Virus record (IMG/VR): IMGVR_UViG_3300020202_000165
Location: 1-37,940 of that record
Length of the DNA: 37,940 nucleotides
Reading direction: 5' to 3' (one strand)
DNA from: a virus
Lineage: Duplodnaviria; Caudoviricetes
This document shows positions 3-37,775 of the stretch, one piece after another. The notes under the pieces are model-generated. The model saw only the letters and a program-made list of their open reading frames with translations, did not search any database and was not told the DNA's origin. The position numbers and the translations under genes were made by a program. Numbering within the stretch: the stretch's first letter is position 1; every line of letters begins with the position of its first letter.

Positions 3-1691
3 GAATGCGACCCCGAGGGCCAGTGGATACGCGAGCGGGTAGACCCGGGCGAGATGTTCTGGGACCCCGCGGCGAAGAAGAAGAACCTCTCGGATGCCCG
101 CTGGCTGCTTCGCCGGACCCGGGTCGACTCCAAGCTCCTGGAACTCAAATACCCGAAGATCAAGGACGTGCAGGCCGAGGGCGAAACCTTCATGGCCGAG
201 CCGTCCGACGACGACCAGGGCGACCACCTTGCGGACCTTGCCTACCTCTACACCTACGGCAAGAAGGGCCAGGTTGCCGGCACGGAAACCGTGGTCGAGT
301 ACCAGTGGTATGAGCTGGTCACCGAGTACCGGGTGATCGCGCCTGGCTTCCCCGTCACCACGCTCGACGAGACGAAGTTCAAGAAGGGCGAGAAGCGCCT
401 TGAGTCGATGGGCGCGCAATGGGCCAGGGTGCAGCGCAAGAAGTACATGCGCGCGCTGCTGGCGAGAAACCAGGTGGTGGAGAAAGGCCCGTCCCCGGTT
501 GACGGCTTCACCTACCACTGCATCACCGGCCGCTGGGACCGCAACAAGCGGATGTTCTACGGCATGGTCAGGGATCTCAAAGATCCCCAGCGCTGGGCGA
601 ACAAGTTCTTCTCCTCGATGCTCGATATCGTGTCCGTCAACTCCAAGGGCGGCATCATGGCGGAGGAGGGGGCGTTCAAGGACCCCCGCAAGGCGGAGGA
701 GGATTGGTCGAACCCCGGCAAGGTCGTGCTGATGACGCAGGGTGCCATTTCCGGCAACCGCGTCAAGGAACGGCCGCGCTCCGAATACCCGTCCAGCATG
801 GACAAGCTGCTTGCTTTCGCGGTGTCGAGCCTGCGTGACGTTTCGGGTGTCAACGTCGAACTGCTCGGCATGGCGGATCGGGATCAGCCGGGCATCGTTG
901 AAGCTCAGCGGAAGCAGTCAGCCCTTGCAATCCTCGCGCCGTTCTTCGATGCCTTGAAGAGCTACCGCAAGACCGCCGGGCAATGTCAGCTGCAGTTCAT
1001 CCGCCGCTGGATGCCAGATGCGGTGATGCAGCGGGTTCTCCCTCAGGAGTATCACCAGTACATCCCGGCGATCCGCGACGAGAAGGCGATCAAGTTCGAC
1101 GTGATCGTAGACGAATCCCCGGTCTCTCCGAACCAGAAGGAGCAGACCATGGCGGTGCTGGCGCAGTTCCTGCCCGAGGCGATGAAGATGGGCATCATGC
1201 CGCCGCCGGAGGTGCTGGACTACCTGCCATTGCCCAAGCCGTTCGTCGAGAAGTGGAAGGCGAAGCTCAGCCAGCCCGACCCGATGGCCGAGCAGATGAA
1301 GATGCTCGACCTGGAGGAGAAGAAGGCGGGCATCGATAAGGACAAGAGCCAGGCCGCGGCGAACATGGGCCGGGCGCAGCAGGCGATGAAGCAAGATCCG
1401 CGCATGGAAATGCAGATGCGGATCGCCGAGATGCAGGCCGAATTGCAGAAGATGCAAGCCGAGCTTCAGATGAAGCGCGAAGAGCACCAGCAGGAGATGC
1501 AGTTCCGCGTTGCCGAGCATCAGATGGACATGGCTGTCGCCCAGTCGGAACAGGCCATGCAGATGCAGCACGCCGAGCAGGAGCACGCACAGTCCATGGC
1601 GATCAACGAACAGGCCGGCGCGGCGAAGATCGAGCAGATGAAGCGCCAGCAGGCCGCGAAGCCCCAGCCGAACGGAGACGCGCGTGGATAG
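3..1691 (+). CDS. Portal protein, P22-like (5' truncated)
   Basis: Frame of ORF 54..1691 is open back to the window start (ECDPEGQWIRERVDPGEMFWDP); motifs YGMVRDLKDPQRWANK, LRDVSGVNVELLG, KFDVIVDESPVSPNQKE; long Met/Gln-rich C-terminal coiled coil like the P22 portal barrel. Confidence 0.88.
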   Translation, partial: ECDPEGQWIRERVDPGEMFWDPAAKKKNLSDARWLLRRTRVDSKLLELKYPKIKDVQAEGETFMAEPSDDDQGDHLADLAYLYTYGKKGQVAGTETVVEYQWYELVTEYRVIAPGFPVTTLDETKFKKGEKRLESMGAQWARVQRKKYMRALLARNQVVEKGPSPVDGFTYHCITGRWDRNKRMFYGMVRDLKDPQRWANKFFSSMLDIVSVNSKGGIMAEEGAFKDPRKAEEDWSNPGKVVLMTQGAISGNRVKERPRSEYPSSMDKLLAFAVSSLRDVSGVNVELLGMADRDQPGIVEAQRKQSALAILAPFFDALKSYRKTAGQCQLQFIRRWMPDAVMQRVLPQEYHQYIPAIRDEKAIKFDVIVDESPVSPNQKEQTMAVLAQFLPEAMKMGIMPPPEVLDYLPLPKPFVEKWKAKLSQPDPMAEQMKMLDLEEKKAGIDKDKSQAAANMGRAQQAMKQDPRMEMQMRIAEMQAELQKMQAELQMKREEHQQEMQFRVAEHQMDMAVAQSEQAMQMQHAEQEHAQSMAINEQAGAAKIEQMKRQQAAKPQPNGDARG

Positions 1692-1938
1692 TGAATGGGA
1701 TTGGCGTCAAGCGGTGCAGGCTTTGAGGGCAGAAATCCCTGACATTCACGTTGAGCATATGGACTTCGGCAACACGGTTGCGGCGCAAAATCCCACGACC
1801 GGGCGAGTCATCTATGTAAAGCGCGTGTATCGGCCGGAGCGCGATGGCGCGGTCGGATATTGGCTGATGTCGCCCTGCAGCGTGTCGGAGGCCGTCGAAA
1901 TACTCAGGCAGTCGAAGCAGCCGCGAGGTGAGGCTTGA
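1684..1938 (+). CDS. Hypothetical protein (84 aa)
   Basis: GTG start with GGAG upstream, overlaps portal stop; fills gap in operon. Confidence 0.55.
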   Translation: MDSEWDWRQAVQALRAEIPDIHVEHMDFGNTVAAQNPTTGRVIYVKRVYRPERDGAVGYWLMSPCSVSEAVEILRQSKQPRGEA

Positions 1939-2117
1939 ACCTCACCCCGTTGCAAGAAGCCCTAGCCGAGATGTGCGAAGCCCGGAAAGCCTGGCGCATC
2001 GCATGGCGCGCCTATGAAGCGGCAAATGCGGCGAAGCAGGCGGCCGATGCGCGCATGCTCGACGCGCGAACCCACCTGGACCACACAATCGACGCGATGA
2101 TCGAGGCTCACAAATGA
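1935..2117 (+). CDS. Hypothetical helical protein (60 aa)
   Basis: TTG start after GAGGTGAGG; 4-nt overlaps with both neighbours. Confidence 0.6.
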   Translation: MNLTPLQEALAEMCEARKAWRIAWRAYEAANAAKQAADARMLDARTHLDHTIDAMIEAHK

Positions 2118-2983
2118 GCGAAATCGACGTTCTCTCGGCCGAAGAGGCCGCCATCGTCTCTCCGGGCGCACCTCCTGCCGCGCCCGAGCCGGCTCCGGCC
2201 CCTCAGCCCGCGCCTCAACCGGAGCCGGCACCTACTCCGAAGGCTGAAGAGCCGCCGAAACCGGCTCCCGAAGCCCCGAAAACCGAGTCGGAGACCCCGA
2301 AAGGCGGTCCGAACGATGCAATCGCGGCCATGCGGCGCGAAAACGCCGAAATGCGCCGGCAATTGGCCGCTCTACAGCAGCAATTGCAGCCAAAACAGCC
2401 GGAAATCCAGCCTCCGGCCTTCGATCAGGACCCGGCAACCAACCTCAACGCTCGCCTGACCCCCACGGAGCAGGCCGTCGCCGAAATCCGCCAGCAGATG
2501 CAGGCGCAAGCGGTCCAGCAGCAGATCATGACCGCGTATGCGACCTCCGCGCGCGAGTTTGCGGCGCAAAATGCCGACTTCACCGAGGCCTACCAGTTCC
2601 TTCTCAACGGCCGCACCGAGGAATTGCAGGCCATGGGCTATTCGGGCGTCGAATTGGCCCGCCGCGTGCAAGCCGACGAGATGGGAATCGTCGCCACGGC
2701 GCTTCAGAACGGCGCAAATCCGGCTGAAACCCTCTACCGGGTCGCCAAGGCGCGCGGGTTCACCGGTCCGAAGCCGAAAGAGGCGCCCAAGACCGCTCCG
2801 GCCACACCCGCCCAGGCGGCCGACCTCCAGCGCATCGCGGAGGGCCAACGGGTTGCCGCGTCGCCGGTTGCCGGCGCCGAGGCCGCTCCGTCGTCAGAGT
2901 TGACACTGGAAACATTCCTGGCTATGGATGAAGAAGAAGCTGCCGCCCTCACGGGCAAGAAGTGGCAGCGGATGTGGCAGTAA
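2114..2983 (+). CDS. Capsid scaffolding protein (putative)
   Basis: Between portal and capsid; Pro/Glu-rich disordered N-terminus, coiled-coil middle, short C-terminal helix ending KKWQRMWQ. Confidence 0.75.
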   Translation: MSEIDVLSAEEAAIVSPGAPPAAPEPAPAPQPAPQPEPAPTPKAEEPPKPAPEAPKTESETPKGGPNDAIAAMRRENAEMRRQLAALQQQLQPKQPEIQPPAFDQDPATNLNARLTPTEQAVAEIRQQMQAQAVQQQIMTAYATSAREFAAQNADFTEAYQFLLNGRTEELQAMGYSGVELARRVQADEMGIVATALQNGANPAETLYRVAKARGFTGPKPKEAPKTAPATPAQAADLQRIAEGQRVAASPVAGAEAAPSSELTLETFLAMDEEEAAALTGKKWQRMWQ

Positions 2984-3174
2984 CGACCCCGGCTCTCGTC
3001 TAAACCGGCGCACGTTCGCGGCCTCAGCGTAAAGGCCGTCGCCGCCCGAAGCGACATTCGGAGTGCGAGGCCTGCCAAGCGAATCGGCAGGGGGCTCCCG
3101 AGCCCTGATCGGCGTGCGCGTAACCGTGCGGCGGATAGCGCGGTGCAACCGATTGCCGAAAGCACCCACCAATC
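2984..3174 (+). promoter_or_regulatory. Multi-hairpin structured leader upstream of the major capsid gene
   Basis: At least five stem-loops (3019-3038, 3038-3055, 3071-3091, 3092-3105, 3123-3144) and a long-range pairing GCGCACG 3008-3014 with CGTGCGC 3113-3119. Confidence 0.5.
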
Positions 3175-4278
3175 ATGGCAGCCACCTCATACGGGGTGAA
3201 CCACCCCCTGGCCGTGAAGGCCTGGGCGAAGAAGCTGTTCGTGGAGACCCTGAAGGAAACGCGCTACGCGCAGTTCCGGGGCTCCTCGGGCACCGAATCG
3301 CTCATTTCGATGAAGAACGAGTTGACGAAGGACGCTGGCGACCGTGTTCGCCAAGGCCTTCGCATGCAGCTCAGCGGCGCCGGTATCCAGGGCGATGCAA
3401 CCTTGGAAGGCAACGAAGAGGCTCTCGCCACTCACCATGACGATGTGTTCATCGACCAGCTCCGTCATGCTGTGAAGTCGGAAGGCGAGATGTCCGAGCA
3501 ACGCGTCTCCTTCGACGTGCGTCAGGAGGCGATGGACGGCCTGCGCGATTGGTGGGCCGACCGCTGGGATACCTGCTTCTTCAACCAGCTTGCCGGCGCC
3601 AGCGTCATCCAGACGCAGGCCAACACGGTCCAGAGCACCAACCTCTCGACGGTGTACTCGGGCAACCAGGTCGCGATTGCGCCGGACGCGAGCCACATCT
3701 TCTCGTCCAGCGCCACCAACGACAACACGACCGAGGCGTCACTGTCGGCGACGACCACCTTCGCGCTGAAGTTGGCCGACATCGACCGCGCGGTGGCGAA
3801 GGCGAAGACCCTGACCCCGGCCATCCGGCCGCTCAAGGTCAACGGCGACACGCGGTTCGTGTTGTTCATCCACCCGTATCAGACCTACCAGCTCCGCACC
3901 AACACGGCGGATGGAAACTGGCTGGCGATGCAGCGCGACGCCATGCAGGGCGGCAAGATCGGGGACAACCCCCGCATCACCGGCCTGCTCGGCGTCTACA
4001 ACAACACGATGATTGTCGAGGACGCGCGCGTTCCGAACGTCCCGACCATCACCGCGAACACCTCCTATCGTCGCAGCGTGTTCTGCGGCGCTCAGGCCGC
4101 ATTGATGGCGTTCGGCCGCAAGAGCCGCGACGGCACCATGACATGGGTCGAGGAGGGCTTTGACTACAAGAACAAGCTCGGCGTTTCGGCCGGTGCGATC
4201 TTCGGCATCAAGAAGACGGTGTTCAACTCCGCCGACTTCTCGACGATCGTCATCTCCGGCTACGCGCCTGCGGCTTAA
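3175..4278 (+). CDS. Major capsid protein, N4-gp56/DUF4043 family
   Basis: AVKAWAKKLF, KDAGDRV, LEGNEEAL, IDQLRHAV, FIHPYQ, GAQA, IFGIKKTVFN motifs; 367 aa; follows scaffold. Confidence 0.9.
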   Translation: MAATSYGVNHPLAVKAWAKKLFVETLKETRYAQFRGSSGTESLISMKNELTKDAGDRVRQGLRMQLSGAGIQGDATLEGNEEALATHHDDVFIDQLRHAVKSEGEMSEQRVSFDVRQEAMDGLRDWWADRWDTCFFNQLAGASVIQTQANTVQSTNLSTVYSGNQVAIAPDASHIFSSSATNDNTTEASLSATTTFALKLADIDRAVAKAKTLTPAIRPLKVNGDTRFVLFIHPYQTYQLRTNTADGNWLAMQRDAMQGGKIGDNPRITGLLGVYNNTMIVEDARVPNVPTITANTSYRRSVFCGAQAALMAFGRKSRDGTMTWVEEGFDYKNKLGVSAGAIFGIKKTVFNSADFSTIVISGYAPAA

Positions 4279-9530: not shown

Positions 9531-9561
9531 TGGCAGGCGCCGCAATAGTGATCGCGCCGCG

Positions 9562-9711: not shown

Positions 9712-9768
9712 GTTGGGCTCTCCCGGAGGGCGTATTCAAGCACAGCTGACGGGGCAATGGGTTAACGG

Positions 9769-10185: not shown

Positions 10186-10188
10186 GTC

Positions 10189-11642: not shown

Positions 11643-12763
11643 GGTTCCTGAAGCAATCCACAGCCGTGGACCTGGCACTCGGCCCGTTCCTCGACGCGAC
11701 CGATGGTGTCACCGCCGAAACCGGCCTGACGATCAGCCAGGCCGACGTGCGGCTGAAGAAGAACGCCGGGGCCTGGGCACAGAAGAACGATGCCAACGCG
11801 GCGACGCACGAGGAAAACGGCTGGTACGAAACCCCGCTCAACACCACCGACACCGACACGCTCGGCGTTCTGATGATCGCGGTTCACGAGAGCGGCGCGC
11901 TGCCCGTTTGGCACGAGTTCATGGTGGTGCCGGCGAACGTCTATGACAGCCTGTTCTCGACTGACAAGCTGGAGGTGGACGTTGCGCAGTTCGGCGGGTC
12001 GAACCTGACGGCATCCGGTGGACGCCCTGAGGTCAACACGTCGCACATCGCCGGTTCTGCCGTCTCGACCAGTTCAGCGCAGATTGGCGTCAACGTGGTG
12101 CAGGTTTCCGGCGACGCGACGGCGGCCGACAACGCCGAAGCCTTCTTCGATGGCACTGGCTATGCCGGCACGAACAATGTGATCCCGACCGTCACCAGCG
12201 TCACGAACGCTGTCAGCGCCAATGTCACGCAGATTTCCGGGGACAGCACTGCTGCGGACAATCTTGAGGCGGTACTTGATGGAACCGGAGGTGTGACGCT
12301 GGTTGCTTCGGCGATCACCTTGACGACCCCGATCACCGCCAACGCAACCCAGATCAGCGGCGACAGCGGCGCGGCGGATAATGCGGAGGCATTTTTCGAC
12401 GGCACGGGGTACGCGGGCACGAACAACGTCATCCCCACGGTGACCTCGGCCGGACTCTCCGCCGCTGCCGTGGACGCGATTTGGGACGAAGAGCAGTCCG
12501 GTCACACCACGGCCGGCACCTTCGGCAAGTACCTCGATCAGCAGCTAACCACGCTGCTCACCACGGCAATGACGGAAGCCTACGCGGCCGATGGCGCGAC
12601 GATGACCGTTGCGCAGGCGCTCTATGAGATTGCCCAGAGCATCGGCGAGTTCTCGATTTCCGGCACCACCCTGACGGTGAAGAAGCGCGACGGCTCGACG
12701 ACGGCCGCCACCTACACGCTCAACGACAGTTCGTCTCCGACCTCGCGCACGCGGGCGAGCTGA
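11639..12763 (+). CDS. Virion structural/fibre-like protein with internal repeats
   Basis: Thr/Ala/Ser/Gly-rich; repeats QxSGDxxAADNxEAxxDGTG; AVDAIWDE motif. Confidence 0.75.
   Translation: MRFLKQSTAVDLALGPFLDATDGVTAETGLTISQADVRLKKNAGAWAQKNDANAATHEENGWYETPLNTTDTDTLGVLMIAVHESGALPVWHEFMVVPANVYDSLFSTDKLEVDVAQFGGSNLTASGGRPEVNTSHIAGSAVSTSSAQIGVNVVQVSGDATAADNAEAFFDGTGYAGTNNVIPTVTSVTNAVSANVTQISGDSTAADNLEAVLDGTGGVTLVASAITLTTPITANATQISGDSGAADNAEAFFDGTGYAGTNNVIPTVTSAGLSAAAVDAIWDEEQSGHTTAGTFGKYLDQQLTTLLTTAMTEAYAADGATMTVAQALYEIAQSIGEFSISGTTLTVKKRDGSTTAATYTLNDSSSPTSRTRAS
12101..12448 (+). repeat. Intragenic repeat: 33-aa units at 12101-12199 and 12350-12448, 20-aa partial unit at 12230-12289
   Basis: QVSGDATAADNAEAFFDGTGYAGTNNVIPTVTS vs QISGDSGAADNAEAFFDGTGYAGTNNVIPTVTS (30/33 identical). 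Confidence 0.9.
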
Positions 12764-12972
12764 TGGCGATCAAGGACATCATCGTTCCCGGCTTCGTTGG
12801 AACCGACACGATCAAGTGGATCGTCACGCGCGGCCTGTCACTCGGCGCCGTTGCTGACGAATGGACGCCCGTATCTCCAGGCTCCGGCTCATGGACTGCG
12901 GCCAGTCCAACAGCGGCGTCATGGACTCCAGCATCGGCAGGGAGCGGCACTTGGACGCCGGTTGATCCCTGA
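12763..12972 (+). CDS. Small virion protein with four 10-aa WT(P/A)xS repeats
   Basis: TGATG coupling on both sides; EWTPVSPGSG-SWTAASPTAA-SWTPASAGSG-TWTPVDP. Confidence 0.7.
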   Translation: MAIKDIIVPGFVGTDTIKWIVTRGLSLGAVADEWTPVSPGSGSWTAASPTAASWTPASAGSGTWTPVDP

Positions 12973-14450
12973 TGCCGTTCAAGGTCCTCCCTTACGCAGA
13001 ATGGCTGCCCGACCTCCCCGATTGGAACAACCCGGGCGCCACGGTCGCGACCAACGTCATTCCCGGCCCGAACAGCTATCGGCCGTTTCCGGGCTCGACT
13101 GTCGTTTCCGGGGCGATGGCGGAGAGGGTGCAAGGCGCCTTCGCTTGCACGGATAATGACGGCAACACCGTTGTCTTCGCCGGCACCGCGACCAAGCTCT
13201 ACAAGTTCTCCAACGCTGATTCGACCTGGGAGGATGTGACGCGCGCCTCGGGTGGCGCCTATGCCACGGAGGCAGACGGGTTCTGGAGCTTTTGCAAGTT
13301 CGGCACGCGCATCATCGCGACCAATTTTGTTGATGACGTGCAATCCTACGTGCTCGGCTCATCGACGGATTTCGCGGCGCTCTCCGGCTCTCCCCCGCGC
13401 GCAAAGTTCTGCTGTGTCGCTGGCGAGCAAGTGTTTCTCGGCAGGCTCTCGACCGATCCCCAGGGGGTGGCCTGGTGCGGCATCGATGACCCGACCACCT
13501 GGTCTTCCTCGCAGACCACGCTGGCGGACAGCCAGAGCCTCGTCGGCGATGGCGGGCACGTCACCGGCCTTGTGGGCGGCGAGTATGTGACGGTCTTCCA
13601 GGAGCGCTCGATCTTCCGCGGCGACTTCATCGGCGCGCCCGTCATCTGGCAGTTCCGCGAGATGGTGAAGAATCGCGGCTGCAAGGCGCCACAATCGATC
13701 GTGCCGGTGAACCAGTCGGCGTTCTTCCTCGCCGATGACGGCTGGTACATGTGGAACGGCGTAGGGGTCCAGGGCATCGGCAAGAACAAGGTGGACAAGA
13801 CCTTCTATTCGCTGCTGGACCAGGACTACCTCTATCGCATCAACGGCACGGTTGACCCGATCAACTCCCTGGTCATGTGGGGCTTCCCCTCGGGTGCCAC
13901 GGCAGGCACGCCGAACCGCATCCTGATCTTCAACTACTCGATTGGCAGATGGTCGCAGATTACCGGCGTGGAATACGAGTTGCTGTTCCCCGACCTGTCC
14001 AAGGGTTACACGCTTGAGCAGCTGGACGCGATCAGCGCGAGCATCGAGACGTTGCCGTTCTCGCTCGACTCGCGCGCGTGGACCGGCGGCAATCTGCTGC
14101 TGGCGGCGTTCAACACGGACCACAAGCTGGTTGCCTTCACCTCGACCTATCTCGCGGCGACGCTGGAGACCGGAGAGGTGGAGCTGGGCGGTGCGGAGCG
14201 CGCGTTCATTTCCAACGTGCGGCCGATAGTCGAGGGAACCTCGGTCACCGTCACGTCGGCGCTCGGCTATCGCGAGACCTCGGGAGCCTCGCCTTCCTAC
14301 ACCTCAGCCGTTTCGCAGAACACGCACGGCTACTGCCCGATGCGCAACTCGTCGCGCAAGCACCGGGTGAGGGTTTCCATCGCTGCCGCCGGCACCTGGA
14401 CGCATGCCGTCGCGGCGGAAGTCGAGTGGCGTCGTGATGGCCGCCGCTAA
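12972..14450 (+). CDS. Tail nozzle / DNA stabilization protein (P22 gp10 or tail tubular B-like beta-propeller)
   Basis: 492 aa; EWLPD N-terminus, DPTTWS, RGCKAPQSIV, AFFLADDGWYMWNG, IGKNKVD motifs; upstream of ejection genes. Confidence 0.75.
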   Translation: MPFKVLPYAEWLPDLPDWNNPGATVATNVIPGPNSYRPFPGSTVVSGAMAERVQGAFACTDNDGNTVVFAGTATKLYKFSNADSTWEDVTRASGGAYATEADGFWSFCKFGTRIIATNFVDDVQSYVLGSSTDFAALSGSPPRAKFCCVAGEQVFLGRLSTDPQGVAWCGIDDPTTWSSSQTTLADSQSLVGDGGHVTGLVGGEYVTVFQERSIFRGDFIGAPVIWQFREMVKNRGCKAPQSIVPVNQSAFFLADDGWYMWNGVGVQGIGKNKVDKTFYSLLDQDYLYRINGTVDPINSLVMWGFPSGATAGTPNRILIFNYSIGRWSQITGVEYELLFPDLSKGYTLEQLDAISASIETLPFSLDSRAWTGGNLLLAAFNTDHKLVAFTSTYLAATLETGEVELGGAERAFISNVRPIVEGTSVTVTSALGYRETSGASPSYTSAVSQNTHGYCPMRNSSRKHRVRVSIAAAGTWTHAVAAEVEWRRDGRR

Positions 14451-14472
14451 TCGAGAGGAGGTGATCCAGTCT

Positions 14473-14523
14473 ATGGCGAAGGGTAAACCGAAGCCGACCC
14501 GCAAGGGTGGGAAAGGCTGCTGA
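14473..14523 (+). CDS. 16-aa basic micro-protein MAKGKPKPTRKGGKGC
   Basis: Very strong SD AGGAGGTGATCC at 14456-14467; stop overlaps next start (TGATG). Confidence 0.55.
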   Translation: MAKGKPKPTRKGGKGC

Positions 14524-14846
14524 TGGCAACGACCTTCCGCGGCCTAGGAGGCTTCCCCGGCAGCATCGAGACTGCATGGCACGTCTTGCGCGTGGCCTTC
14601 AACAGCATGCTTGCCGGGAAGCTGAACTGCACCGGCTCCGTGACGCTTACGGCCAGCGCCACCAGCACCACGCTCACGGACACCCGGATCGGCGGGTCGA
14701 GCGTGATCCTATTCTGCCCGACCACTGATGATGCCCGCACGTCAGGCGTCCCGAAGGTCTCCGCAAAGGCCGATGGCTCGGCGACGCTGGGGCATACCTC
14801 GGACGCATCCACCACCCGGACCTATGACTATGTTGTCATCGGCTGA
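14523..14846 (+). CDS. Small virion protein (107 aa), Thr/Ser-rich
   Basis: GKLNCTGSVTL...YDYVVIG; follows nozzle gene. Confidence 0.7.
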   Translation: MATTFRGLGGFPGSIETAWHVLRVAFNSMLAGKLNCTGSVTLTASATSTTLTDTRIGGSSVILFCPTTDDARTSGVPKVSAKADGSATLGHTSDASTTRTYDYVVIG

Positions 14847-15294
14847 AGCAACAACCATGCCAACCGAGCCGGCCGAGGCTCCCGAGACTGAACTGGTCCC
14901 GGTCCCGGCCGACCAACTGCTGTCCGTTGCAAGGGCCGTGGGGCCGCTTCTGGAGCCCGCCCTGGCACGGGAGGGCGACCTGCGGGTCATAGACGTGTTC
15001 CGCAAGATCCTGGCCCAGGAATGGCAGCTTTGGGCCGTCCAGAAGGATGGGGAAATCGTCTGCGCCCTGGTGACCGCCCTGGCGATCAGACCCATGGCGA
15101 AAGTCCTGCAACTGAGGTATGTTGGCGGTGACAACATAGACGCCTGTTTGGAGCACCTGCCGACCGTCGAGGCGTGGGCTCGCCAGCTGGGCGCGGTGCG
15201 GGTGGAGGTGGTTGGGCGCAAGGGCTGGAAGCGGAAGCTTGCCGGCTACCAGCAGACGGACGTGATCCTGCGGAAGGTGTTGGCCGATGTCTAA
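14830..15294 (+). CDS. GNAT-like tail assembly / internal virion protein A-like
   Basis: WQLWAV, LRYVGG, VEAWARQLGAVRVEVVGRKGWKRKL pattern; usual slot before ejection proteins; start uncertain (14830 or 14857). Confidence 0.6.
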   Translation: MLSSAEATTMPTEPAEAPETELVPVPADQLLSVARAVGPLLEPALAREGDLRVIDVFRKILAQEWQLWAVQKDGEIVCALVTALAIRPMAKVLQLRYVGGDNIDACLEHLPTVEAWARQLGAVRVEVVGRKGWKRKLAGYQQTDVILRKVLADV

Positions 15295-16234
15295 CGAAAC
15301 CGAGACGGTCTCGACCACGCAGACGGCCTCCCCGTCGCTGCCGAACATGCCCTTCCTGTCGCAGGGCTTCTCCGAAGCGGCGCGGTTGTACAATCAGGGT
15401 GCGCAGGTTCCCGACGCCTACAAGGCAATCGAGACGCGCCTGTTAGGGCCGTCCGGCCAGCACGCCTCGGACTGGAACCGCCGCGCGGCTGACACGGTGG
15501 CGCAGTACGCGACAGGCCACCACGGCCAGTATTTTACCAGTCCGACGCTCCAACGCTTTATGTCCGGAGAGATGCTGTCACCGGACAGCAACCCGTGGCT
15601 TAAGGGCGCCTACGAGGACGCGGCGGGGGCACTGCGTGGGCAGATCAGCTCGCAGTTCGCCGGGTCGGGCCGTTACGGCTCCGGCGCCAATCAGGAAATC
15701 CTCGGTCGCAACCTCGGGCAGCTCGCCAACCAGATGTACGGCGGCGCGTATCAGCAGGGCATCGGCCAGATGCTTTCCGCCGGCATGATGGATTCGCAGC
15801 TGCAATCCCAGGACACCGGCCGGCGCATGCAGGCGGCGGCGATGGTGCCGGGCCTGATGGACTCCGACCTGAACAGCCTGTTCAAGCTGGGATTGGTTCA
15901 GCAGGGCCAGATCAATGCTCCATGGGAGAACTTGCAGCGCTACATGGGCGTGGTCAACCCGGGGATCAACTTCGGCGGCTCGACCACTTCGCAGCAGCCG
16001 TATTTCAGCAATCCGGTAGGGCAGGGCATCGGCCTGCTTGGCTCCGGTCTCTCGGCGGCGAACATGGCGTTCGGCCAGAACGGGCTGTTCCCCGGCGCGG
16101 CGCAGAGCGGCGCGTCGAACCTGTGGAACTGGGCGAGCACCGATCCGTTCGGCTTCTCGCTGCCGTCGGCCTCCGAACTCGGCTTCCTGACCAATCAGGC
16201 CAACGCCTACCTTGATGCGGGCATCGCCCTCTGA
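15287..16234 (+). CDS. DNA ejection / internal virion protein 1
   Basis: Gly/Gln/Ser-rich, SQFAGSGRYGSG motif, hydrophobic Gly-rich C-terminus. Confidence 0.65.
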   Translation: MSNETETVSTTQTASPSLPNMPFLSQGFSEAARLYNQGAQVPDAYKAIETRLLGPSGQHASDWNRRAADTVAQYATGHHGQYFTSPTLQRFMSGEMLSPDSNPWLKGAYEDAAGALRGQISSQFAGSGRYGSGANQEILGRNLGQLANQMYGGAYQQGIGQMLSAGMMDSQLQSQDTGRRMQAAAMVPGLMDSDLNSLFKLGLVQQGQINAPWENLQRYMGVVNPGINFGGSTTSQQPYFSNPVGQGIGLLGSGLSAANMAFGQNGLFPGAAQSGASNLWNWASTDPFGFSLPSASELGFLTNQANAYLDAGIAL

Positions 16235-22231: not shown

Positions 22232-22317
22232 CGCCGGCCGACTTCCTGATCCTGACCATGGTCGGCTGCCTGCTCGCCATGATGCTGGTTTCGGGCGCGC
22301 TGCTGATGGTGCCCTAG
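22228..22317 (+). CDS. Small membrane peptide (29 aa)
   Basis: MTPADFLILTMVGCLLAMMLVSGALLMVP; ATGA start overlap and TAGTG overlap with next gene. Confidence 0.5.
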   Translation: MTPADFLILTMVGCLLAMMLVSGALLMVP

Positions 22318-23360
22318 TGGCCACCCCCCAGCTCCCCGACGCCGTACTCGCCGAGACCATGGCAGCCCTGGAGCGGCACGGCGGCAACATCAAGCACGCA
22401 GCCGATAGCTTGGGATTGGCCTGGAGCACCTTCAACAACCGGGTGCGGATGGCAACCCTGAGGGGGGTTACGTCATCCAAGCCGTTTGAGCGGGACGAGC
22501 TGCCGAGCGAAATCGCCCCGGCCTCCGAAATCATCGCGCGGCGTAAGAAGGAATACGCTCGCCGGCATGAAGCGGCCGAAGCCCGCCGGCTGATCAACGT
22601 CCGGATCAAGATCGACGGGCCGATCGGCATTGTGCACGGGGGCGACCCGCACCTTGACGATCCCGGCTCCGATATCGAGCTGATCGAAGCCCACTGCAAG
22701 ATCATTCAGAAGACCGAAGGCCTGTTCGGCGCCAACGTTGGCGACCTGCACAACAACTGGGTCGGTCGCCTTGCGCACCTCCACTCGCAGCAGAGCACGT
22801 CGGCGCGAGAGGCCTGGGCGCTGGTCGAGTGGTACATCAAGGCCACCGACTGGCTCTACATCATCCGCGGCAACCACGATTGCTGGACGGGTGCGGGGGA
22901 CCCGCTCAACTGGATGACCCAGGGCGCCAACGGCGTACACGAGGACTGGGGCGCCAGGCTCAATCTCCAGTTCCCGAACAGCAAGGAAGTCCGGATCAAC
23001 GCCCGGCATGACTTTAGCGGCCATAGCATGTGGAACACCGCGCACGGCCCCGCCAAGGCCGTCCAGATGGGCTGGCGAGATCACATCCTGACCTGTGGCC
23101 ACCTGCATGTCTCCGGCTATCAGGTGCTCAAGTGCCCCTCCACCGGGCTGGTGTCGCATGCCATTCGCTGCGGCTCCTACAAGCGGCATGACCGCTACGC
23201 CCGGGAGAAGGGGCTGCCGGATCAGAACATCTTTCCGGCCGCGGTGACGATCATCGACCCGACGCGAGCGGATGACGACCCGAGGCTGGTGACGACGATC
23301 TTCGATGTCGAGCAAGGCGCGGAGTTCCTGCGATGGCTGCGGAAGAAATCGAAGTCGTAA
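22317..23360 (+). CDS. HTH + calcineurin-like metallophosphoesterase
   Basis: Fis-like HTH (GGNIKHAADSLGLAWSTFNNR); GDPH, VGDLHNN, RGNHD, RHDF, CGHLH phosphoesterase motifs. Confidence 0.85.
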   Translation: MATPQLPDAVLAETMAALERHGGNIKHAADSLGLAWSTFNNRVRMATLRGVTSSKPFERDELPSEIAPASEIIARRKKEYARRHEAAEARRLINVRIKIDGPIGIVHGGDPHLDDPGSDIELIEAHCKIIQKTEGLFGANVGDLHNNWVGRLAHLHSQQSTSAREAWALVEWYIKATDWLYIIRGNHDCWTGAGDPLNWMTQGANGVHEDWGARLNLQFPNSKEVRINARHDFSGHSMWNTAHGPAKAVQMGWRDHILTCGHLHVSGYQVLKCPSTGLVSHAIRCGSYKRHDRYAREKGLPDQNIFPAAVTIIDPTRADDDPRLVTTIFDVEQGAEFLRWLRKKSKS

Positions 23361-23629
23361 CCGAATACCCCGTTGCTCAGTCGATCGACGAGCAGCGCCG
23401 CGCCTTCGTGTTCGCCCAGCTGGCGGACGCGGAGATCGACGGCGAGGTGTTGGTCAAGAACATGGACATGATCGCGCGATGGATCGAGACGGGCGAAGTG
23501 CCGAAGAAGGGCCAGAGGGTGGTCAAGTTATCTACGTCCGCTGGCTCCCCCACGGCGAGCCCATCCCCGAGGGATGGAAGTACGTCGAGAGGCAGCCCAT
23601 CACCCGACACCATCGGTACGCAGTGCTGA
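23333..23629 (+). CDS. Hypothetical protein (real coding part probably ends near 23530)
   Basis: First ~65 aa look globular; last ~33 aa are low-complexity Ser/Pro read-through (see finding at 23515-23646). Confidence 0.55.
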   Translation: MAAEEIEVVTEYPVAQSIDEQRRAFVFAQLADAEIDGEVLVKNMDMIARWIETGEVPKKGQRVVKLSTSAGSPTASPSPRDGSTSRGSPSPDTIGTQC

Positions 23630-23642
23630 TCGAGAGGATGCG

Positions 23643-24158
23643 ATGAGCTGGGACAAGGCCATCACGCATGTTCTGGAGTGGGAGGGCGGGGCCGCCCACA
23701 GCCTTGATCCCGACGACCCCGGTAACTACACCGGCCAGGACAAGACCGGCGAGCTGCGCGGCACCAAGTACGGCATCTCCGCTCTGAGCTTTCCCCTTCT
23801 CGACATCAAGGGCCTGACGGAGGACCAAGCCAGGTCGATCTACCGCGACCGTTACTGGCGCGAGATACAGGGCGACAAGCTGCCCGAGCCGCTGGCGATC
23901 ATGCTGATGGATTCGGCGGTCAATTGCGGCATTTCCCGCTCGGTCAAGTGGCTCCAGAAGACGCTCAGGATACAGGCCGATGGCTCGCTTGGCCCGGTAA
24001 CGCTGGCGGCGGTGAAGACACAGACCGGCGTCTACCTCGCCAAGGAAGTGGCCGACCAGAGGGAGCGGCATTACCGGCTGCTGAAGACCTGGGGGAAGTA
24101 CGGCAAGGGCTGGATGAATCGACTGAACGCCTGCCGGAAGCTGGCGGGCATCCAGTGA
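23643..24158 (+). CDS. Endolysin, glycoside hydrolase family 108 with PG-binding domain
   Basis: WEGG catalytic motif, DPG, TKYGIS, IYRDRYW, DSAVNCG, ADGSLGPVTL, YGKGWMNRL; ATG at 23643 after GAGAGG. Confidence 0.92.
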   Translation: MSWDKAITHVLEWEGGAAHSLDPDDPGNYTGQDKTGELRGTKYGISALSFPLLDIKGLTEDQARSIYRDRYWREIQGDKLPEPLAIMLMDSAVNCGISRSVKWLQKTLRIQADGSLGPVTLAAVKTQTGVYLAKEVADQRERHYRLLKTWGKYGKGWMNRLNACRKLAGIQ

Positions 24159-24332: not shown

Positions 24333-24719
24333 ATGCTCGCCGCGCTACTCCCCATCCTAACCCCCCTGCTGGGCAAGTTGCTGGAATCGGTCATCCCCGA
24401 TCCCCAGGCCCGGCAGAAAGAGCTAGATCGCATGCTCGGCGCGCTGGCGCAATCGGACCTCTCCCAGCTTGAGGTGAACAAGGCGGAGGCGACATCCGGC
24501 AACCTGTTCATCGCCGGCTGGCGCCCCTTCATCGGTTGGGTGTGCGGCACGGCGCTTGCCTACACCTACCTGTTCGCGCCGCTGGCCTATTACGTCGGCT
24601 TCCTGATCGGCAAGCCCATCCCGAAGCTGCCGACGCTCGACGGCAACCTCTACGAACTGATGCTCGGCATGCTGGGCATGGCGGGCCTTCGCACGTTCGA
24701 GAAGATCAAGACGAAGTAG
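24333..24719 (+). CDS. Holin of 3 TMs (GTA_holin_3TM-like)
   Basis: EVNKAEA, FIAGWRPFIGWVCG, LGMLGMAGLRTFEKIK; SD GAGG. Confidence 0.88.
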   Translation: MLAALLPILTPLLGKLLESVIPDPQARQKELDRMLGALAQSDLSQLEVNKAEATSGNLFIAGWRPFIGWVCGTALAYTYLFAPLAYYVGFLIGKPIPKLPTLDGNLYELMLGMLGMAGLRTFEKIKTK

Positions 24720-24722
24720 GCC

Positions 24723-24914
24723 CTACTTCTTCACCCTCTCGTAAAAGCCCCGCTTCCTCTCATCTGACAGCTCCTGCCTGAGCTGTTCGATGGTCTCTAC
24801 CAGCTGGTCGATCAGCTCGGCGAAGGCTACCCCTGTCGGCCCCGCCGTTCTCGATACCGCGGCCACCTTCCGGGCGCGGATCACAAGCTTGCGGATGTCG
24901 GCGGAGCGGGGCAT
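24723..24914 (-). CDS. Hypothetical protein (63 aa), convergent with holin
   Basis: Coiled-coil C-terminus; fits gap exactly. Confidence 0.5.
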   Translation of the reverse strand: MPRSADIRKLVIRARKVAAVSRTAGPTGVAFAELIDQLVETIEQLRQELSDERKRGFYERVKK

Positions 24915-25063
24915 GGTTGGGCATCATGGGCGATTCAATCCACGCTATCCACAGGGACGAGGGCTAGTCGGGCGTTGACAGTCCGAACCGGGGCTTAGAG
25001 TCGGCTTTTAAGTGCTTGGGCGCAGAAGGAAAGCAATAAAATTGCGGGCGCGCAATAATATTA

Positions 25064-25091
25064 CTGCCGCATAATGTATATGATGGTACGT
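25064..25091 (+). other. dif-like XerC/XerD recombination site (candidate attP or resolution site)
   Basis: CTGCCGCATAA-TGTATA-TGATGGTACGT vs E. coli dif GGTGCGCATAA-TGTATA-TTATGTTAAAT: 20/28 identity including 14 contiguous nt; in AT-rich intergenic junction. Confidence 0.7.
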
Positions 25092-25141
25092 GACGGTGCA
25101 GTATACCACCAGTATTGTCTGAGCTGGTTAAAATCCACAGG

Positions 25142-25504
25142 CTAGACATTTGCCATCCTGCGCTTGGCGCGGTCAACCAAATTCCGTGCTTCTCTAAGCA
25201 CTTCGGCCTCTTGTTTGTGCCGCATATAGCTCAATCCTTCGAGCCCGCGAGATAGGGTGTCTAGTATCTCGCTGACTGCCTTCAGGTGCTCGAACGAGCG
25301 GAGAGGGAGGTCGAACCGGACGCGGCGGTCCAGGCCGGTCATCTCGACGCGCCGCTCGGTGATCGGCACCAGCGCATCGCGCGTCGCTTTGGCAATCTCC
25401 TGGCTCGCGACCTTGCCCAGGCGCGGAATCATCTTGGCCACATCCGGCTCCACCAGCGGGGTTCCATCGGCCAGTAGGCGGCCGTCTTGTGCGATCTCAA
25501 CCAT
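25142..25504 (-). CDS. Hypothetical protein (about 120 aa), last gene of the early-left operon next to the dif-like site
   Basis: ATG at 25504 with SD GAGGAG; helical C-terminus. Confidence 0.65.
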   Translation of the reverse strand: MVEIAQDGRLLADGTPLVEPDVAKMIPRLGKVASQEIAKATRDALVPITERRVEMTGLDRRVRFDLPLRSFEHLKAVSEILDTLSRGLEGLSYMRHKQEAEVLREARNLVDRAKRRMANV

Positions 25505-25546
25505 GTTCACTCCTCAGCTCCAACGGCAGGCGTAGGCGTCGCTCTG

Positions 25547-25819
25547 TCATGGGGTGTCTTGGTGGGGCCGCCACTCCTGGCATGACCGAGTTAGGTCATC
25601 CAATTGCTCGCGCAGTTCGTCGGGCAACGCGGTCTCTGGGCCAATCTGGTCGAGATCGATCGCCCCGCATTCACCGCCCTCGGGATACGCCCAAAGCCCC
25701 GAAGGATTGGTCTGCGGATCGGGCTGGTAGGTCGGAGGCGGGAGATCGATGCGAGCCACCTCCCACATGTCCGAGTGCCAGTGTTTGATCCAGCGATAGG
25801 TGCCGGGCTTTGCGTCCAT
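25547..25819 (-). CDS. Hypothetical protein
   Basis: ORF with GGAG upstream; in - strand operon. Confidence 0.55.
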   Translation of the reverse strand: MDAKPGTYRWIKHWHSDMWEVARIDLPPPTYQPDPQTNPSGLWAYPEGGECGAIDLDQIGPETALPDELREQLDDLTRSCQEWRPHQDTP

Positions 25820-32578: not shown

Positions 32579-33178
32579 TCAGGCTGCCATGTCGGGCAGG
32601 GGCTCCTTGCCCTTGCCGGCGTCGTCTTTCTCGAATGTCTTCTTGAACAGCGCGCCGCTCTGCGTGTGGAAGATCACGACGCCCTCGGGGTTCATGTAGC
32701 CGGGCGCGGCCGCGCTGCCCTTCGCCTGCAACAGCGTCATGGTCGCAGCCACTCGCGCGGTATCGAAGTCGCCCATGTAGAGCGTGGGCACGACATGGCA
32801 GCACGCCGGGCGCTTCTCCGGGTCGGTCCAGCGCCGGACGTTGAACAGGCTGAACCGCTTCTCGTGGCCGAGCCCGTAGCCGCGCTGGATGCCGCCGCCC
32901 CACCACTCGCCGAAGTGCCGGCCGGGGCCAAGCAGGCGCAGCGCTGGAGCGTTGGAGATCACCCAGGTTCCGAAGCCGTGGTTGTCCGGCGCATCCCAAG
33001 CCCAAGAGCCGTCCGCGCCCTGCCGCACCAGCAAGCGCGAGCGCGACGCGGCGCCGATCCGGCCGTCCTCCGTCACGATCACCTGGGCGTTGGTGCCGTC
33101 CAGCTTCTCCGTGATGATCACGTCGCGCGACAGGCGCCCGATCTTCGGAAATGCCTCGAAAGTGATGTCGGTCAACAT
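32579..33178 (-). CDS. RNA ligase (Rnl2-like adenylyltransferase domain only)
   Basis: Motif I TEKLDGTNA, SRSR, FGEWWG, FSLFN, EGVV, LFK; SD GGAGG. Confidence 0.85.
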   Translation of the reverse strand: MLTDITFEAFPKIGRLSRDVIITEKLDGTNAQVIVTEDGRIGAASRSRLLVRQGADGSWAWDAPDNHGFGTWVISNAPALRLLGPGRHFGEWWGGGIQRGYGLGHEKRFSLFNVRRWTDPEKRPACCHVVPTLYMGDFDTARVAATMTLLQAKGSAAAPGYMNPEGVVIFHTQSGALFKKTFEKDDAGKGKEPLPDMAA

Positions 33179-33943: not shown

Positions 33944-33994
33944 AGAATATCACATTGCGTGATGTACGCAAGCCCAAATATCACGTGCCGTGAT
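33944..33994 (-). promoter_or_regulatory. PL promoter with two operators (OL)
   Basis: -35 TTGCGT (33966-33971), 16-nt spacer, -10 TATTCT (33944-33949) with TGn; operators ATCAC-N5-GTGAT at 33949-33963 and 33980-33994. Confidence 0.85.
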
Positions 33995-34021
33995 TTTTAC
34001 CTTTTGACCGGAATTGACCGC

Positions 34022-34055
34022 AAACAAAAACCCCCGCCGGGGTAAGCGGCGGGGG
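34022..34055 (-). terminator. Rho-independent terminator downstream of repressor gene
   Basis: CCCCCGCCG-loop-CGGCGGGGG followed by TTTTTGTTT on - strand. Confidence 0.88.
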
Positions 34056-34090
34056 CGAGGGTGCCGAGGCTGAAACGGCGAATAGGTGGC

Positions 34091-34405
34091 TCAGTGAACC
34101 TGTTCGGGAGACAGCCCCGGTAACTTGGCGATCAGCTCAAGCGGCAATCCGGCGCGGATGCCGCGATAGATGAAATCCATGGTGACGCCTGTGGCCTCGC
34201 ACAAGCGCCGGCCCTCCAGGGGTTTGGGGACACGGCTGCCCTTCTCCCAGTTGTTAATGGCGGGCTGGGTAAGCCCCACCTTTCCGGCCAAATCCTCCTG
34301 CGTCCAGTCGAACGCCAGGCGGATCGCTTTGATGCGGCCCCCAACCGAATCCATGTCAGGCGGGGCCTCGGGTTTCTTGCGTCGAGCCATGCCCAACGAT
34401 GGCAT
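34091..34405 (-). CDS. cI: CI-like repressor, XRE HTH only (no S24 peptidase domain)
   Basis: RIKAIRLAFDWTQEDLAGKVGLTQPAINNWEKG; divergent from cro across operators; start may be 34390. Confidence 0.85.
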   Translation of the reverse strand: MPSLGMARRKKPEAPPDMDSVGGRIKAIRLAFDWTQEDLAGKVGLTQPAINNWEKGSRVPKPLEGRRLCEATGVTMDFIYRGIRAGLPLELIAKLPGLSPEQVH

Positions 34406-34419
34406 TCCCAGGCACGAAA

Positions 34420-34469
34420 ATCACATCACGTGATATTCTCTTGCAAGACATCACGCGTCGTGATAAACG
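34420..34469 (+). promoter_or_regulatory. PR promoter with two operators (OR)
   Basis: Operators ATCAC-N5-GTGAT at 34420-34434 and 34450-34464; -35 TTGCAA (34441-34446), 17 nt, -10 TAAACG (34464-34469). Confidence 0.85.
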
Positions 34470-34475: not shown

Positions 34476-34664
34476 ATGGACGCAGTGAAGGTCATTGATG
34501 AGGAGTTCGACGGTCCGACCAAGCTGGCCGCGCTGCTGAGTGAGGTGACTGGTCACAAGTTCACCCAGCCGCAGGTTTCCAACTGGAAAGAGCGCGGCAT
34601 CCCTTGGCGCTGGCGGCCGGTCATTGACCGGCTCCGCGCGGCCAAGCAGAGCGAGGCGGCCTAA
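34476..34664 (+). CDS. cro: Cro-like HTH protein
   Basis: GPTKLAALL...TQPQVSNWKERGIP; 62 aa; divergent from cI. Confidence 0.82.
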   Translation: MDAVKVIDEEFDGPTKLAALLSEVTGHKFTQPQVSNWKERGIPWRWRPVIDRLRAAKQSEAA

Positions 34665-35741: not shown

Positions 35742-36137
35742 ATGTCGCGTTCACTGGACAAAATGGACAGCGATGTGCCGGCGATGGCGCTCGACCAAGA
35801 CGGCTACACGCTGTTGGTCGCCGACGCGCTGCAGAAGGATTTCGGGCAGGGCCGGAACGCCATCAAGCGTATAGCCGCCGCGGCGAATAGCAACATCAAG
35901 GCGGCGAAGAATTGGTACTACGGCGTCAACGCGCCGGGCGGCCTGCATCTGCTTCGCCTGATGGCGCACAGTCCGACGCTGGCGAGTGAAGCGCGCCGTT
36001 TGGCTGCGATGGAATCGAACATGGACCCCGCCTTTGAGCGGGCGATGCATCAGGCGGTCAGCTTGTTCATGCGTCTTCCCCGTCCAGAGCAGGACGCGGC
36101 GATGCGCCGCATGGCGAGAGCGGAGGGCGCAGATTGA
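35742..36137 (+). CDS. CII-like HTH transcriptional regulator (putative)
   Basis: SD AGGAGG; AIKRIAAAANSNIKAAKNWYYGVNAPGGLHLLRLM HTH-like; downstream of cro. Confidence 0.6.
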   Translation: MSRSLDKMDSDVPAMALDQDGYTLLVADALQKDFGQGRNAIKRIAAAANSNIKAAKNWYYGVNAPGGLHLLRLMAHSPTLASEARRLAAMESNMDPAFERAMHQAVSLFMRLPRPEQDAAMRRMARAEGAD

Positions 36138-36397
36138 TGACCGACCAACTCGCCGCCGCCTACACCGCCACCGCCGAGAAGCTGATCGGCAAGAACAGCT
36201 ACGTCGTCTCTCGCGATGTTCCGGTAGAGGACATGCCTCCGGCGGCGCGTGATGAAGCTCTCCGCGCTGCCGTCACCGAGCTTGCGATCACCCGCCTTGC
36301 TCTTGCGCTGGCCTGCCAGGACGTGTCCGCGGGCTTCATCCAGAAGGGCGGCAAGCCTGTTCTCCCACCGAAGCCTGCACCGGAGGCGATTGCATGA
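36137..36397 (+). CDS. Hypothetical protein
   Basis: TGATG coupling; DVSAGFI motif. Confidence 0.6.
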   Translation: MTDQLAAAYTATAEKLIGKNSYVVSRDVPVEDMPPAARDEALRAAVTELAITRLALALACQDVSAGFIQKGGKPVLPPKPAPEAIA

Positions 36398-36504
36398 CCA
36401 GCGCCCGCTTTCCCCATCGCGCCCCTAGTTGGCTCGGCTGCCTTGCTCTTGGCGGCGGGACGTGGGCGCTTGGCTGGGCCGCGATCATGTGGGTGTTCGG
36501 GTGA
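36394..36504 (+). CDS. Small membrane peptide (36 aa)
   Basis: Read manually: MTSARFPHRAPSWLGCLALGGGTWALGWAAIMWVFG; SD GGAGG; ATGA and GTGA couplings. Confidence 0.5.
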   Translation: MTSARFPHRAPSWLGCLALGGGTWALGWAAIMWVFG

Positions 36505-36671
36505 CCGAACTCACCCGCCGCCTCTCCGCTCTCCGGGACGCCGGCCAGGCTGCCTGCCTGCTGCTGTGGGTGTTCTTTCTCGGAGCCTTGGCGCTCTACG
36601 CCGTGACCAGCCCGATCACGCTGACCGTGATGCTGGCGGCGATGTTCTTCAAGCGGGGGATGTGCGGATGA
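36501..36671 (+). CDS. Small membrane protein (56 aa)
   Basis: GTG start; long hydrophobic segment CLLLWVFFLGALALYAVTSPITLTVMLAAMFF. Confidence 0.5.
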   Translation: MTELTRRLSALRDAGQAACLLLWVFFLGALALYAVTSPITLTVMLAAMFFKRGMCG

Positions 36672-37114
36672 GCGCGCTCAAATTCAATCTGATCTATCCC
36701 GGCTCGCGACTCGACCGCAAGCCACCCGCGTTGGTCGCCGCGTTCCTCGCCGGCATCCGCGATGGTGCCGACGCGGCGCCGTGGCGAGACGAGTTCCAGA
36801 CTGGAAGCGCCACCCCATCGGCGACCCTCAATTACGAGCGCGGGCGCATCGCGGCAATCGTTGGGCCGAAGGCCGCGCCGCTCGACGCGCTGAACATCGC
36901 GCTCAAGACGAAGGCCATTCCGACCCCCGGGCGCTGGCGGGGCGTTGAGCCCAGCGCGGTTTCCTCCCTGAAACTCCCCCGGCTCAGCGATGGGCCGGGG
37001 GCTCTTTCCCGAGATTCCATCTCGCCGTCGATCCCGCCAGCAAAGCCGACGGCGAGCGGCGGCCGTGTGACCCCCTCATCCCACACGGCCGCCAACCTAT
37101 CGGAGGCGCCATGA
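36668..37114 (+). CDS. Hypothetical protein
   Basis: MSALKFN start by ATGA coupling; AFLAGIRDG...LNYERGR core; low-complexity C-terminus. Confidence 0.55.
   Translation: MSALKFNLIYPGSRLDRKPPALVAAFLAGIRDGADAAPWRDEFQTGSATPSATLNYERGRIAAIVGPKAAPLDALNIALKTKAIPTPGRWRGVEPSAVSSLKLPRLSDGPGALSRDSISPSIPPAKPTASGGRVTPSSHTAANLSEAP
36976..37009 (+). terminator. Intragenic terminator-like hairpin (tR-like)
   Basis: CCCCCGGC...GCCGGGGG stem followed by CTCTTTCC. Confidence 0.4.
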
Positions 37115-37500
37115 AGCGCCGGCAGTCAGAGCAATCCCTGCACCGCGCCGTTGCGCAGTACCTCGACGCGGCGCTGCCGAAAAGCATGTTCTGGACCACG
37201 TTTCCGGCGGGCGGTGGCGGGCGCATTCGCGGGGCTCAGCTAAAGGCGATGGGGCTCCGCGCCGGGGTGCCCGACCTTTTGATCATGTGGAACGCCGCCA
37301 CCCTGGGGATTCTGCAAGTCGGCTGGATCGAGCTGAAGGCCAAGCGCGGGATGGTGAGCATGGTGCAGGACATCGTGCACCACGACTTGCGTCGCATGGG
37401 CTGCCACGTCGCCTGCTGCCGCTCCCTTGATGACGTGCAAGAGACGCTGATTGGGTGGGGGATCGTGCCTAAGGCCACTGTCAGCAGGAGGGCTGCATGA
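37111..37500 (+). CDS. VRR-NUC domain nuclease (Holliday junction resolvase-like)
   Basis: SEQSLH, AMGLRAGVPDLLI, WIELKAKRG, Q...LRRMG, CRSLDDV. Confidence 0.85.
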   Translation: MKRRQSEQSLHRAVAQYLDAALPKSMFWTTFPAGGGGRIRGAQLKAMGLRAGVPDLLIMWNAATLGILQVGWIELKAKRGMVSMVQDIVHHDLRRMGCHVACCRSLDDVQETLIGWGIVPKATVSRRAA

Positions 37501-37775
37501 GGGTGGAAGTGGATGTCGATGTCTTCGACGTTCTGGACGAAGTGCCGAACGAGGATTTGCTTGAAGAAGTGGCCATTCGAGGCCTCAACGTGCCAACCGG
37601 CGTCAAGGATGACGATCTGTGGCGTTTGCTGGCGATGATTGAGTCCGGCTCCCCTGGCGCGGCTGCTGACGAACTGCGCGAGATGCTGCGTCACATCGGC
37701 GAAGTAGATCGCCGCCGCGAGTGGGACGCCGTGAAGTCCGGGGAGCATCCATTCCTCCGGGCGGGCCGCGCATGA
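37497..37775 (+). CDS. Hypothetical acidic protein
   Basis: SD AGGAGG; VDVDVFDVLDEVPNEDLLEEVAIRGL. Confidence 0.7.
   Translation: MRVEVDVDVFDVLDEVPNEDLLEEVAIRGLNVPTGVKDDDLWRLLAMIESGSPGAAADELREMLRHIGEVDRRREWDAVKSGEHPFLRAGRA

Follow-up and report, generated by a model that had tools for sequence, protein, structure and literature searches.

The phage genome analysed here carries a mimic of the bacterial dif site in the slot where a related phage fragment carries its attP, integrase and xis. The mimic is real and goes beyond chance. It is probably an attachment site of the TLC type, through which host XerC and XerD would insert the phage circle at chromosomal dif; we hold this reading with moderate confidence. 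The window, that is, the whole stretch of 37,940 nt that was analysed, encodes portal, capsid, ejection, lysis, recombination and cI/cro-like functions. A P22-like portal, a terminase, ejection proteins and cI/cro were all found, as in a temperate P22-like podovirus, a morphology that is judged from the genes. The positions of the features are given in Table 1.

Table 1. Features of the window that bear on the dif-like site, its surroundings and the lysogeny switch
Feature	Position (nt)	Strand	Remarks
Portal, P22-like (5' part missing in the window), scaffold-like ORF and major capsid protein	3..4278	+	Pfam/PHROG scans
Endolysin (Glyco_hydro_108)	23574..24158	+	Pfam/PHROG scan
Holin (PF11351)	24333..24719	+	99% aa to G003
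orf63, left edge of the swap	24723..24914	-	84% aa to the integrase-bearing G003
600-bp cassette (site and orf122)	24917..25516	.	Replaces the 1,460-bp attP-integrase-xis cassette of G003
dif-like 28-mer, candidate attP	25064..25091	+	dif profiles, pattern counts, slot comparison
XerC-type arm	25064..25074	+	Inner 7 nt canonical; 9/11 to dif of G619 and G621
Spacer TGTATA, 6 nt	25075..25080	+	Same spacer in many alphaproteobacterial dif sites
XerD-type arm, degenerate	25081..25091	+	Position 2 is G, not T
orf122, 120 aa, last gene of the early-left operon, in the xis/int position	25142..25504	-	Candidate Xer helper
49-bp block, right edge of the swap	25517..25565	-	Identical in G003; directly upstream of orf122 / xis
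Four ATCAC-N5-GTGAT palindromes	33949..34464 (33949, 33980, 34420, 34450)	.	Around cI; likely operators
cI-like HTH_3 repressor	34091..34405	-	Pfam/PHROG scans
cro-like small DNA-binding protein	34476..34664	+	phrog_8008, E 3.5e-05

Anatomy of the dif-like site

The 28-mer reads CTGCCGCATAA-TGTATA-TGATGGTACGT on the plus strand, in an arm-spacer-arm layout. It lies 345 bp past the end of the holin gene, in a 226-bp gap between the minus-strand genes orf63 and orf122. The first-pass annotation had described an 11-6-11 dif layout in which the inner XerC arm and the spacer are intact and the XerD arm is degenerate, and comparison of the arms with dif sites confirms both descriptions. The 28-mer matches E. 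coli dif, as printed in the part of PMC3603311 available, at 20 of 28 positions, including a 14-nt run (counted by eye). Thus the count given earlier holds, but the proper yardstick is alphaproteobacterial dif, the best of which among the stored sites matches at 22/28. The XerD-type arm agrees with general alphaproteobacterial dif at 6-8 of its 11 positions and with dif of the candidate host family at 5-7.

Pattern searches yielded dif candidates in 64/151 gammaproteobacterial, 116/301 alphaproteobacterial and 37/50 candidate-host-family genomes, though not all of these matches are dif. Profiles (PWMs) were built from the sites stored as loci, which comprised 14, 17 and 23 distinct sites, respectively. 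The training sites behave as true dif because KOPS converge on them (16:1 and 1:9 for 19 alphaproteobacterial loci; 16:0 and 0:10 for 27 family loci). With all three PWMs the 28-mer ranks first in the window, at 21.6 (gamma), 26.6 (alpha) and 15.8 (family) bits; the second-best window scores are 1.6, 5.0 and 1.0 bits, a margin of 15-22 bits. Its score was reached by 0/40 whole-window shuffles for each PWM and by 0, 0 and 2 of 3000 shuffles of the gap (gamma, alpha and family PWM). The 28-mer scores under every true dif (leave-one-out minimum 35-49 bits), and the deficit sits in the outer XerC arm and the XerD arm. A 14-nt XerC-arm/spacer pattern, picked post hoc from the phage site, occurs 23 times in 21 of the 50 candidate-host-family genomes (about 210 Mb; control 0/50). 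Full dif sites account for 22 of these occurrences and a prophage junction for one; the phage has the pattern once.

It is very hard to credit that the 28-mer is a chance AT-rich promoter or terminator sequence. The gap around it does rank with the AT-richest parts of the window, a terminator-like hairpin ends 8 nt to its left, and loose dif patterns match IMG/VR about as often as random. Against this stand the shuffles, which reach its score hardly ever or never, and its position within a swapped att cassette (described below). Rfam and promoter scans of the slot returned nothing except one terminator-like hairpin, and no second dif-like site was found within 24801-25400, where the best other match was 14/28.

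The integration slot and the cassette swap

A 29-kb fragment (G003), retrieved with orf63, has several parts in common with the phage: the holin gene (93% nt), orf63 (87% nt), an identical 49-bp block on the far side and further early-gene pieces. Sequence comparison found the structural module of the phage not to be common to the two, and G003 is, on its sequence, one mosaic relative. Its 1,460-bp cassette holds the 3' part of a tRNA, a 354-aa integrase (PF00589, E 1.4e-18) and an HTH_17 xis, and has no similarity to the 600-bp cassette of the phage. Just past the 49-bp block, xis starts in G003, and a ribosome-binding site and orf122 start in the window. In other words, int, xis and the tRNA-type att core are present in G003 and absent from the phage. 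The phage site occupies the integration slot because G003 carries attP-int-xis between the shared flanks. The proposal that the site lies in the usual int/attP slot is thereby upheld by direct comparison, from one relative. The lambdoid or P22-like int-xis-attP module at a tRNA gene, as seen in G003, uses the same genome slot and differs in the int, xis and tRNA core that this phage lacks.

In runs X1-X3, at least three further sequences are found joined downstream of orf63 (window 24723-24916), and from these several partners the att slot seems to be often exchanged. A region so highly mosaic in the same soil runs would suit a relic whose int and attP were lost by exchange with DNA of a dif-associated element and whose site is now inactive. 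That the 28-mer scores under all true dif sites and comes from one independent context only points the same way. We nevertheless regard a relic as quite unlikely, because the inner XerC arm and the spacer are perfect, orf122, a member of a conserved family, is intact and has a good ribosome-binding site, and cI and its four operators are intact. Furthermore, two soil runs from two studies contain the phage (X1 and X2; one of the two may be the source), and the assemblies in both runs pass through the site. Runs X3 and X4 hold small phage pieces only, in which the site is not covered.

Genome completeness and the missing recombinase

The window is an IMG/VR record classed as linear and 89% complete, hence not a whole genome. 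A sister record (G001; 46,347 nt), retrieved with orf122, is 100% identical to it over 15145-35510 and 7597-8944 and 99.99% identical over 1-7745, in a direct alignment that left out 8945-15144. The ends of G001 share 149 nt with one mismatch, and joining them yields a circle of 46,198 nt; IMG/VR classes the record as linear and 69% complete, and the closure of the circle rests on the terminal overlap test. The roughly 8 kb that G001 has in addition encode a terminase, an O-like initiator, a C5 methylase and a GcrA-like gene.

Because the window is only 89% complete, the claim that the phage has no integrase rests on G001. Six-frame profile searches for tyrosine integrase, resolvase, large serine recombinase, protelomerase and ParA (PF00589, PF00239, PF07508, PF16684 and PF13614), in which the positive controls matched, gave 0 matches in the window and in the closed G001. 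Pfam/PHROG scans of 85/341 window ORFs and of 54 ORFs of the missing part found no recombinase, no ParB and no DUF3653 (XafT). The earlier impression that no ORF looks like a tyrosine or serine recombinase is thus borne out.

The lack of a recombinase would also fit a circular plasmid prophage, in which the site and host XerCD serve the phage's own dimer resolution only. An O-like initiator is present, an integrated copy was not found, and plasmid prophages require dimer resolution according to the available text of PMC8026635. A plasmid prophage is unlikely all the same: partition genes are missing (PF13614 in 0/2 records; no ParB among the scanned ORFs), the cassette occupies the att slot, and most circular plasmid prophages carry a tyrosine recombinase of their own (PMC8026635, same sections). 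Dimer resolution itself would pair, self with self, two degenerate XerD arms, and the broken second XerD-arm base removes a motif that FtsK requires in Vibrio (PMC9226527, in the part available). Nor do KOPS converge on the site, as 7/8 of those within about 19 kb rightward point away from it. Since there is no ParA and the inner XerD arm is broken, integration fits better than dimer resolution.

Two side observations concern these records. The last 1.8 kb of the window (36137-37940) match G001 in patches at 73-87%, and other alleles are seen in the contigs of runs X1 and X2; this end is either a strain variant or an assembly chimera. In the part of the genome missing from the window, two overlapping frames (L007:15316-16119 and 15393-16115) each match DNA-methyltransferase families, an arrangement found in two-subunit C5 methylases with overlapping genes, and L007:16630-17193 is a GcrA-like regulator borne by the phage.

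A model for integration at dif

The first-pass annotation proposed that the phage may lysogenise by hijacking host XerCD at dif, or may persist as a circle and resolve dimers at the site. The slot, the lack of a recombinase and the TLC-like arms fit the first option; no prophage was found at dif. In the model that we favour, host XerC and XerD would insert circular phage DNA at chromosomal dif through the phage dif mimic. Crossover inside TGTATA would create a host-XerC-arm/spacer/phage-XerD-arm site at the orf122 end, and at the holin end a working dif would be restored from the phage XerC arm and the host XerD arm. The degenerate XerD arm at the orf122 end would then block excision of the prophage by FtsK-driven dimer resolution.

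The phage XerD arm keeps T1 and G5 and has a changed T2. In V. cholerae, as the accessible sections of PMC9226527 describe, FtsK-driven integration requires the first five XerD-arm bases to be intact, and XafT-driven integration requires mainly T at position 1 and G at position 5. The retained T1 and G5 together with the changed T2 thus predict a stable prophage and a requirement for a helper. The rule from Vibrio may not carry over: most dif sites of the candidate host family have C as their fifth XerD-arm base, where the remaining alpha- and gammaproteobacterial sites collected have G. KOPS in the phage run 8:1 toward the predicted restored dif, a bias that is not above the general bias of G-rich octamers (p 0.16), since permuted octamers run 314:149 in the same direction.

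How would XerD be activated? The likeliest phage helper for activating XerD or setting direction is orf122, which stands in place of xis and int; a role as Xer helper is possible, as a guess from its position. The family comprises 9 clusters at 43-62% identity (BLASTP) with 31 invariant columns. No Pfam, PDB-sequence or fold match was found, and the protein is unlike DUF3653/XafT. Its predicted structure (pLDDT 71) has a C-terminal helical hairpin and no fold match at E<=0.001. One metagenome scan and two viral scans for the context of orf122 returned the G001 contig alone, and the gene was found in 0/50 family genomes, 0/301 alphaproteobacterial genomes and no phage or plasmid record. More tentatively, the orf122 family might constitute a kind of Xer activation factor with no relationship to XafT or FtsK-gamma, with int-xis-attP exchangeable for a dif mimic plus orf122. 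This would amount to a two-part Xer module of tailed temperate phages in Alphaproteobacteria, carried here on a 46-kb tailed IMEX, and we put it forward as a doubtful idea.

The host

GcrA has the Alphaproteobacteria as its taxonomic range, so the match to a GcrA-like family in the extra ~8 kb points to an alphaproteobacterial host. The att core of G003, read as a serine tRNA from its anticodon (ARAGORN reported no whole tRNA gene), matches 130/301 alphaproteobacterial genomes, best G559 at 98% over 65 nt; the unpublished genomes G497 and G304 enter tallies only. Holin-like DNA of 66-80% identity occurs in 5/50 genomes of the family of G559, and homologues of orf122 and orf63 carry database labels of Salinarimonas and Sphingomicrobium bins. 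The host class is thus likely Alphaproteobacteria, and the host family, taken as that of G559 from the relative G003, is uncertain. Dif sites of this family (L357-L386) have TTATC as inner XerD arm in most members, and KOPS converge on them. Two contigs of a single bin (G645:C31 and G645:C54) hold one full dif each, which points to a mixed bin or a second replicon.

Searches for integrated copies and for the site in relatives

The searches found neither this phage nor a close relative integrated at dif, and few relatives were available. The exact phage-type pattern has 15 matches in GTDB genomes, none alphaproteobacterial by title and none similar to this phage. Among 20 family dif regions of up to 20 kb each, none has genes like those of this phage. 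Capsid relatives occur in 3/351 alphaproteobacterial genomes (G495, G453 and G519), none of them located at dif. The capsid gene in G495 lies 23 kb from dif, but the element that holds it begins beside a tRNA-like stretch and ends about 16 kb short of dif, with host genes between and the second site absent. This 15-kb element (G495:C9:329000-344300) has portal, capsid and lysis genes, no integrase match inside, and resembles a degenerate prophage or a gene-transfer-agent-like cluster.

The site was found in 0/197 other loci of holin, capsid and phosphoesterase relatives and in 0/5 capsid relatives. Among 198 distant-relative loci, G001 alone has the site in a GC-rich context, and other high scores lie in AT-richer DNA (0.33-0.49 GC). 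A loose dif pattern was tried on IMG/VR, giving 120 listed loci of about 180 estimated; only G001 exceeds 22/28 among the matches listed, and the other loci look like chance.

One dif region of the candidate host family provides a precedent for the predicted geometry. In G649, a prophage-like element of 9,714 bp (L498:9971-19712; G649:C7:161970-171711) lies between dif and an upstream site whose XerC arm and spacer are as at dif and whose XerD arm matches at 4/11. The element has genes for a packaging-type ATPase and a transglycosylase as well as a repressor gene that runs into the degenerate site, and no integrase was found in 14 scanned ORFs. It is likely a small non-tailed prophage, an IMEX of the alphaproteobacterial family, and it differs from this phage, with orf122 absent. 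The pairing of dif with a degenerate site, as predicted for the phage, was seen in this 1 of the 20 family dif regions fetched.

XerCD could also act at the phage site with secondary dif-like sites or other dif-bearing elements as target. Jorvik, which has no integrase and has dif-like att sites, inserts in a RuBisCO operon (PMC10589892, in the excerpt at hand), and a 235-nt contig of run X1 matches the window only over 25051-25092 (37/42) and diverges one base past the XerD arm. Such a target is improbable: the spacer and inner XerC arm equal chromosomal dif exactly, and beyond dif itself the 14-mer occurs nowhere in about 210 Mb of candidate host genomes bar the one prophage junction. The 235-nt contig could come from a related phage, a host dif or a hybrid (attR) junction; its diverging end was not found in IMG/VR.

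Relation to known Xer-exploiting elements

The closest likeness of the phage is to TLC-phi-type IMEX of V. cholerae (attP plus XafT) and to the gonococcal genetic island, which likewise have no integrase. As far as the available sections of PMC9226527 and PMC6744903 describe them, in TLC-type sites, too, the XerC arm and spacer are good, and the degenerate XerD arm retains T1 and G5. The differences are that the present element is a 46-kb tailed phage with terminase, portal and cI/cro, that its host is likely alphaproteobacterial and its integration would follow from the model above, and that its XerD arm deviates at 3-5 positions (against general alphaproteobacterial dif), in contrast to 8 in TLC-type sites. 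XafT/DUF3653, reported from gamma- and betaproteobacteria, was not found here. The two inverted dif-like sites that fold on ssDNA in CTX-type IMEX were not found in this phage, which is dsDNA and has a single such site within 24801-25400.

Vibrio double jelly-roll prophages, in the portions of PMC12715192 available, exchange modules of integrase/xis or dif-like attP as seen here, but they are small and non-tailed and have an XafT-like P15, where this tailed phage has an unrelated orphan gene. Enterogokushovirus resembles the phage in its single dif motif in a non-coding gap, its variable XerD arm and its lack of an integrase; it is a 4-6 kb ssDNA microvirus with experimental proof of integration, whereas the present case is a dsDNA tailed phage whose integration is predicted (PMC7062461, partial text). 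Jorvik (Vinavirales, Rhodobacter) is likewise an alphaproteobacterial phage without integrase and with dif-like att; it is non-tailed and inserts away from chromosomal dif (PMC10589892, same excerpt).

The accessible parts of the literature describe Xer hijacking for filamentous, micro- and double-jelly-roll phages, satellites and islands. No tailed phage that uses XerCD at dif was found in the full-text literature searched, a body outside which most subscription papers lie, and the available portions of PMC12715192, PMC7062461, PMC10589892, PMC8026635, PMC7901474, PMC3603311 and three preprints contain no tailed case. If the favoured model is true, integrase-less tailed phages, often predicted to be lytic or plasmid-like, can be true lysogens. 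The sharp natural cassette swap offers a ready test pair and singles out one small gene as a possible new XerD activator, which bears on the integration of elements without XafT such as the gonococcal island.

The lysogeny switch and other phage genes

The cI/cro switch claimed in the first-pass annotation is present: a cI and a cro-like gene were found, together with the four palindromic, operator-like sites, and no such palindrome occurs in the att slot. A gene cluster between the capsid and adaptor genes (window 4765-8913) encodes TPR/glycosyltransferase-like, two methyltransferase and more transferase-like proteins; it is partly common to G608 and possibly serves virion or DNA modification. 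An HTH-phosphoesterase gene lies ahead of the lysis genes (window 22317-23360), and the early-left operon contains an RNA ligase (window 32579-33178).
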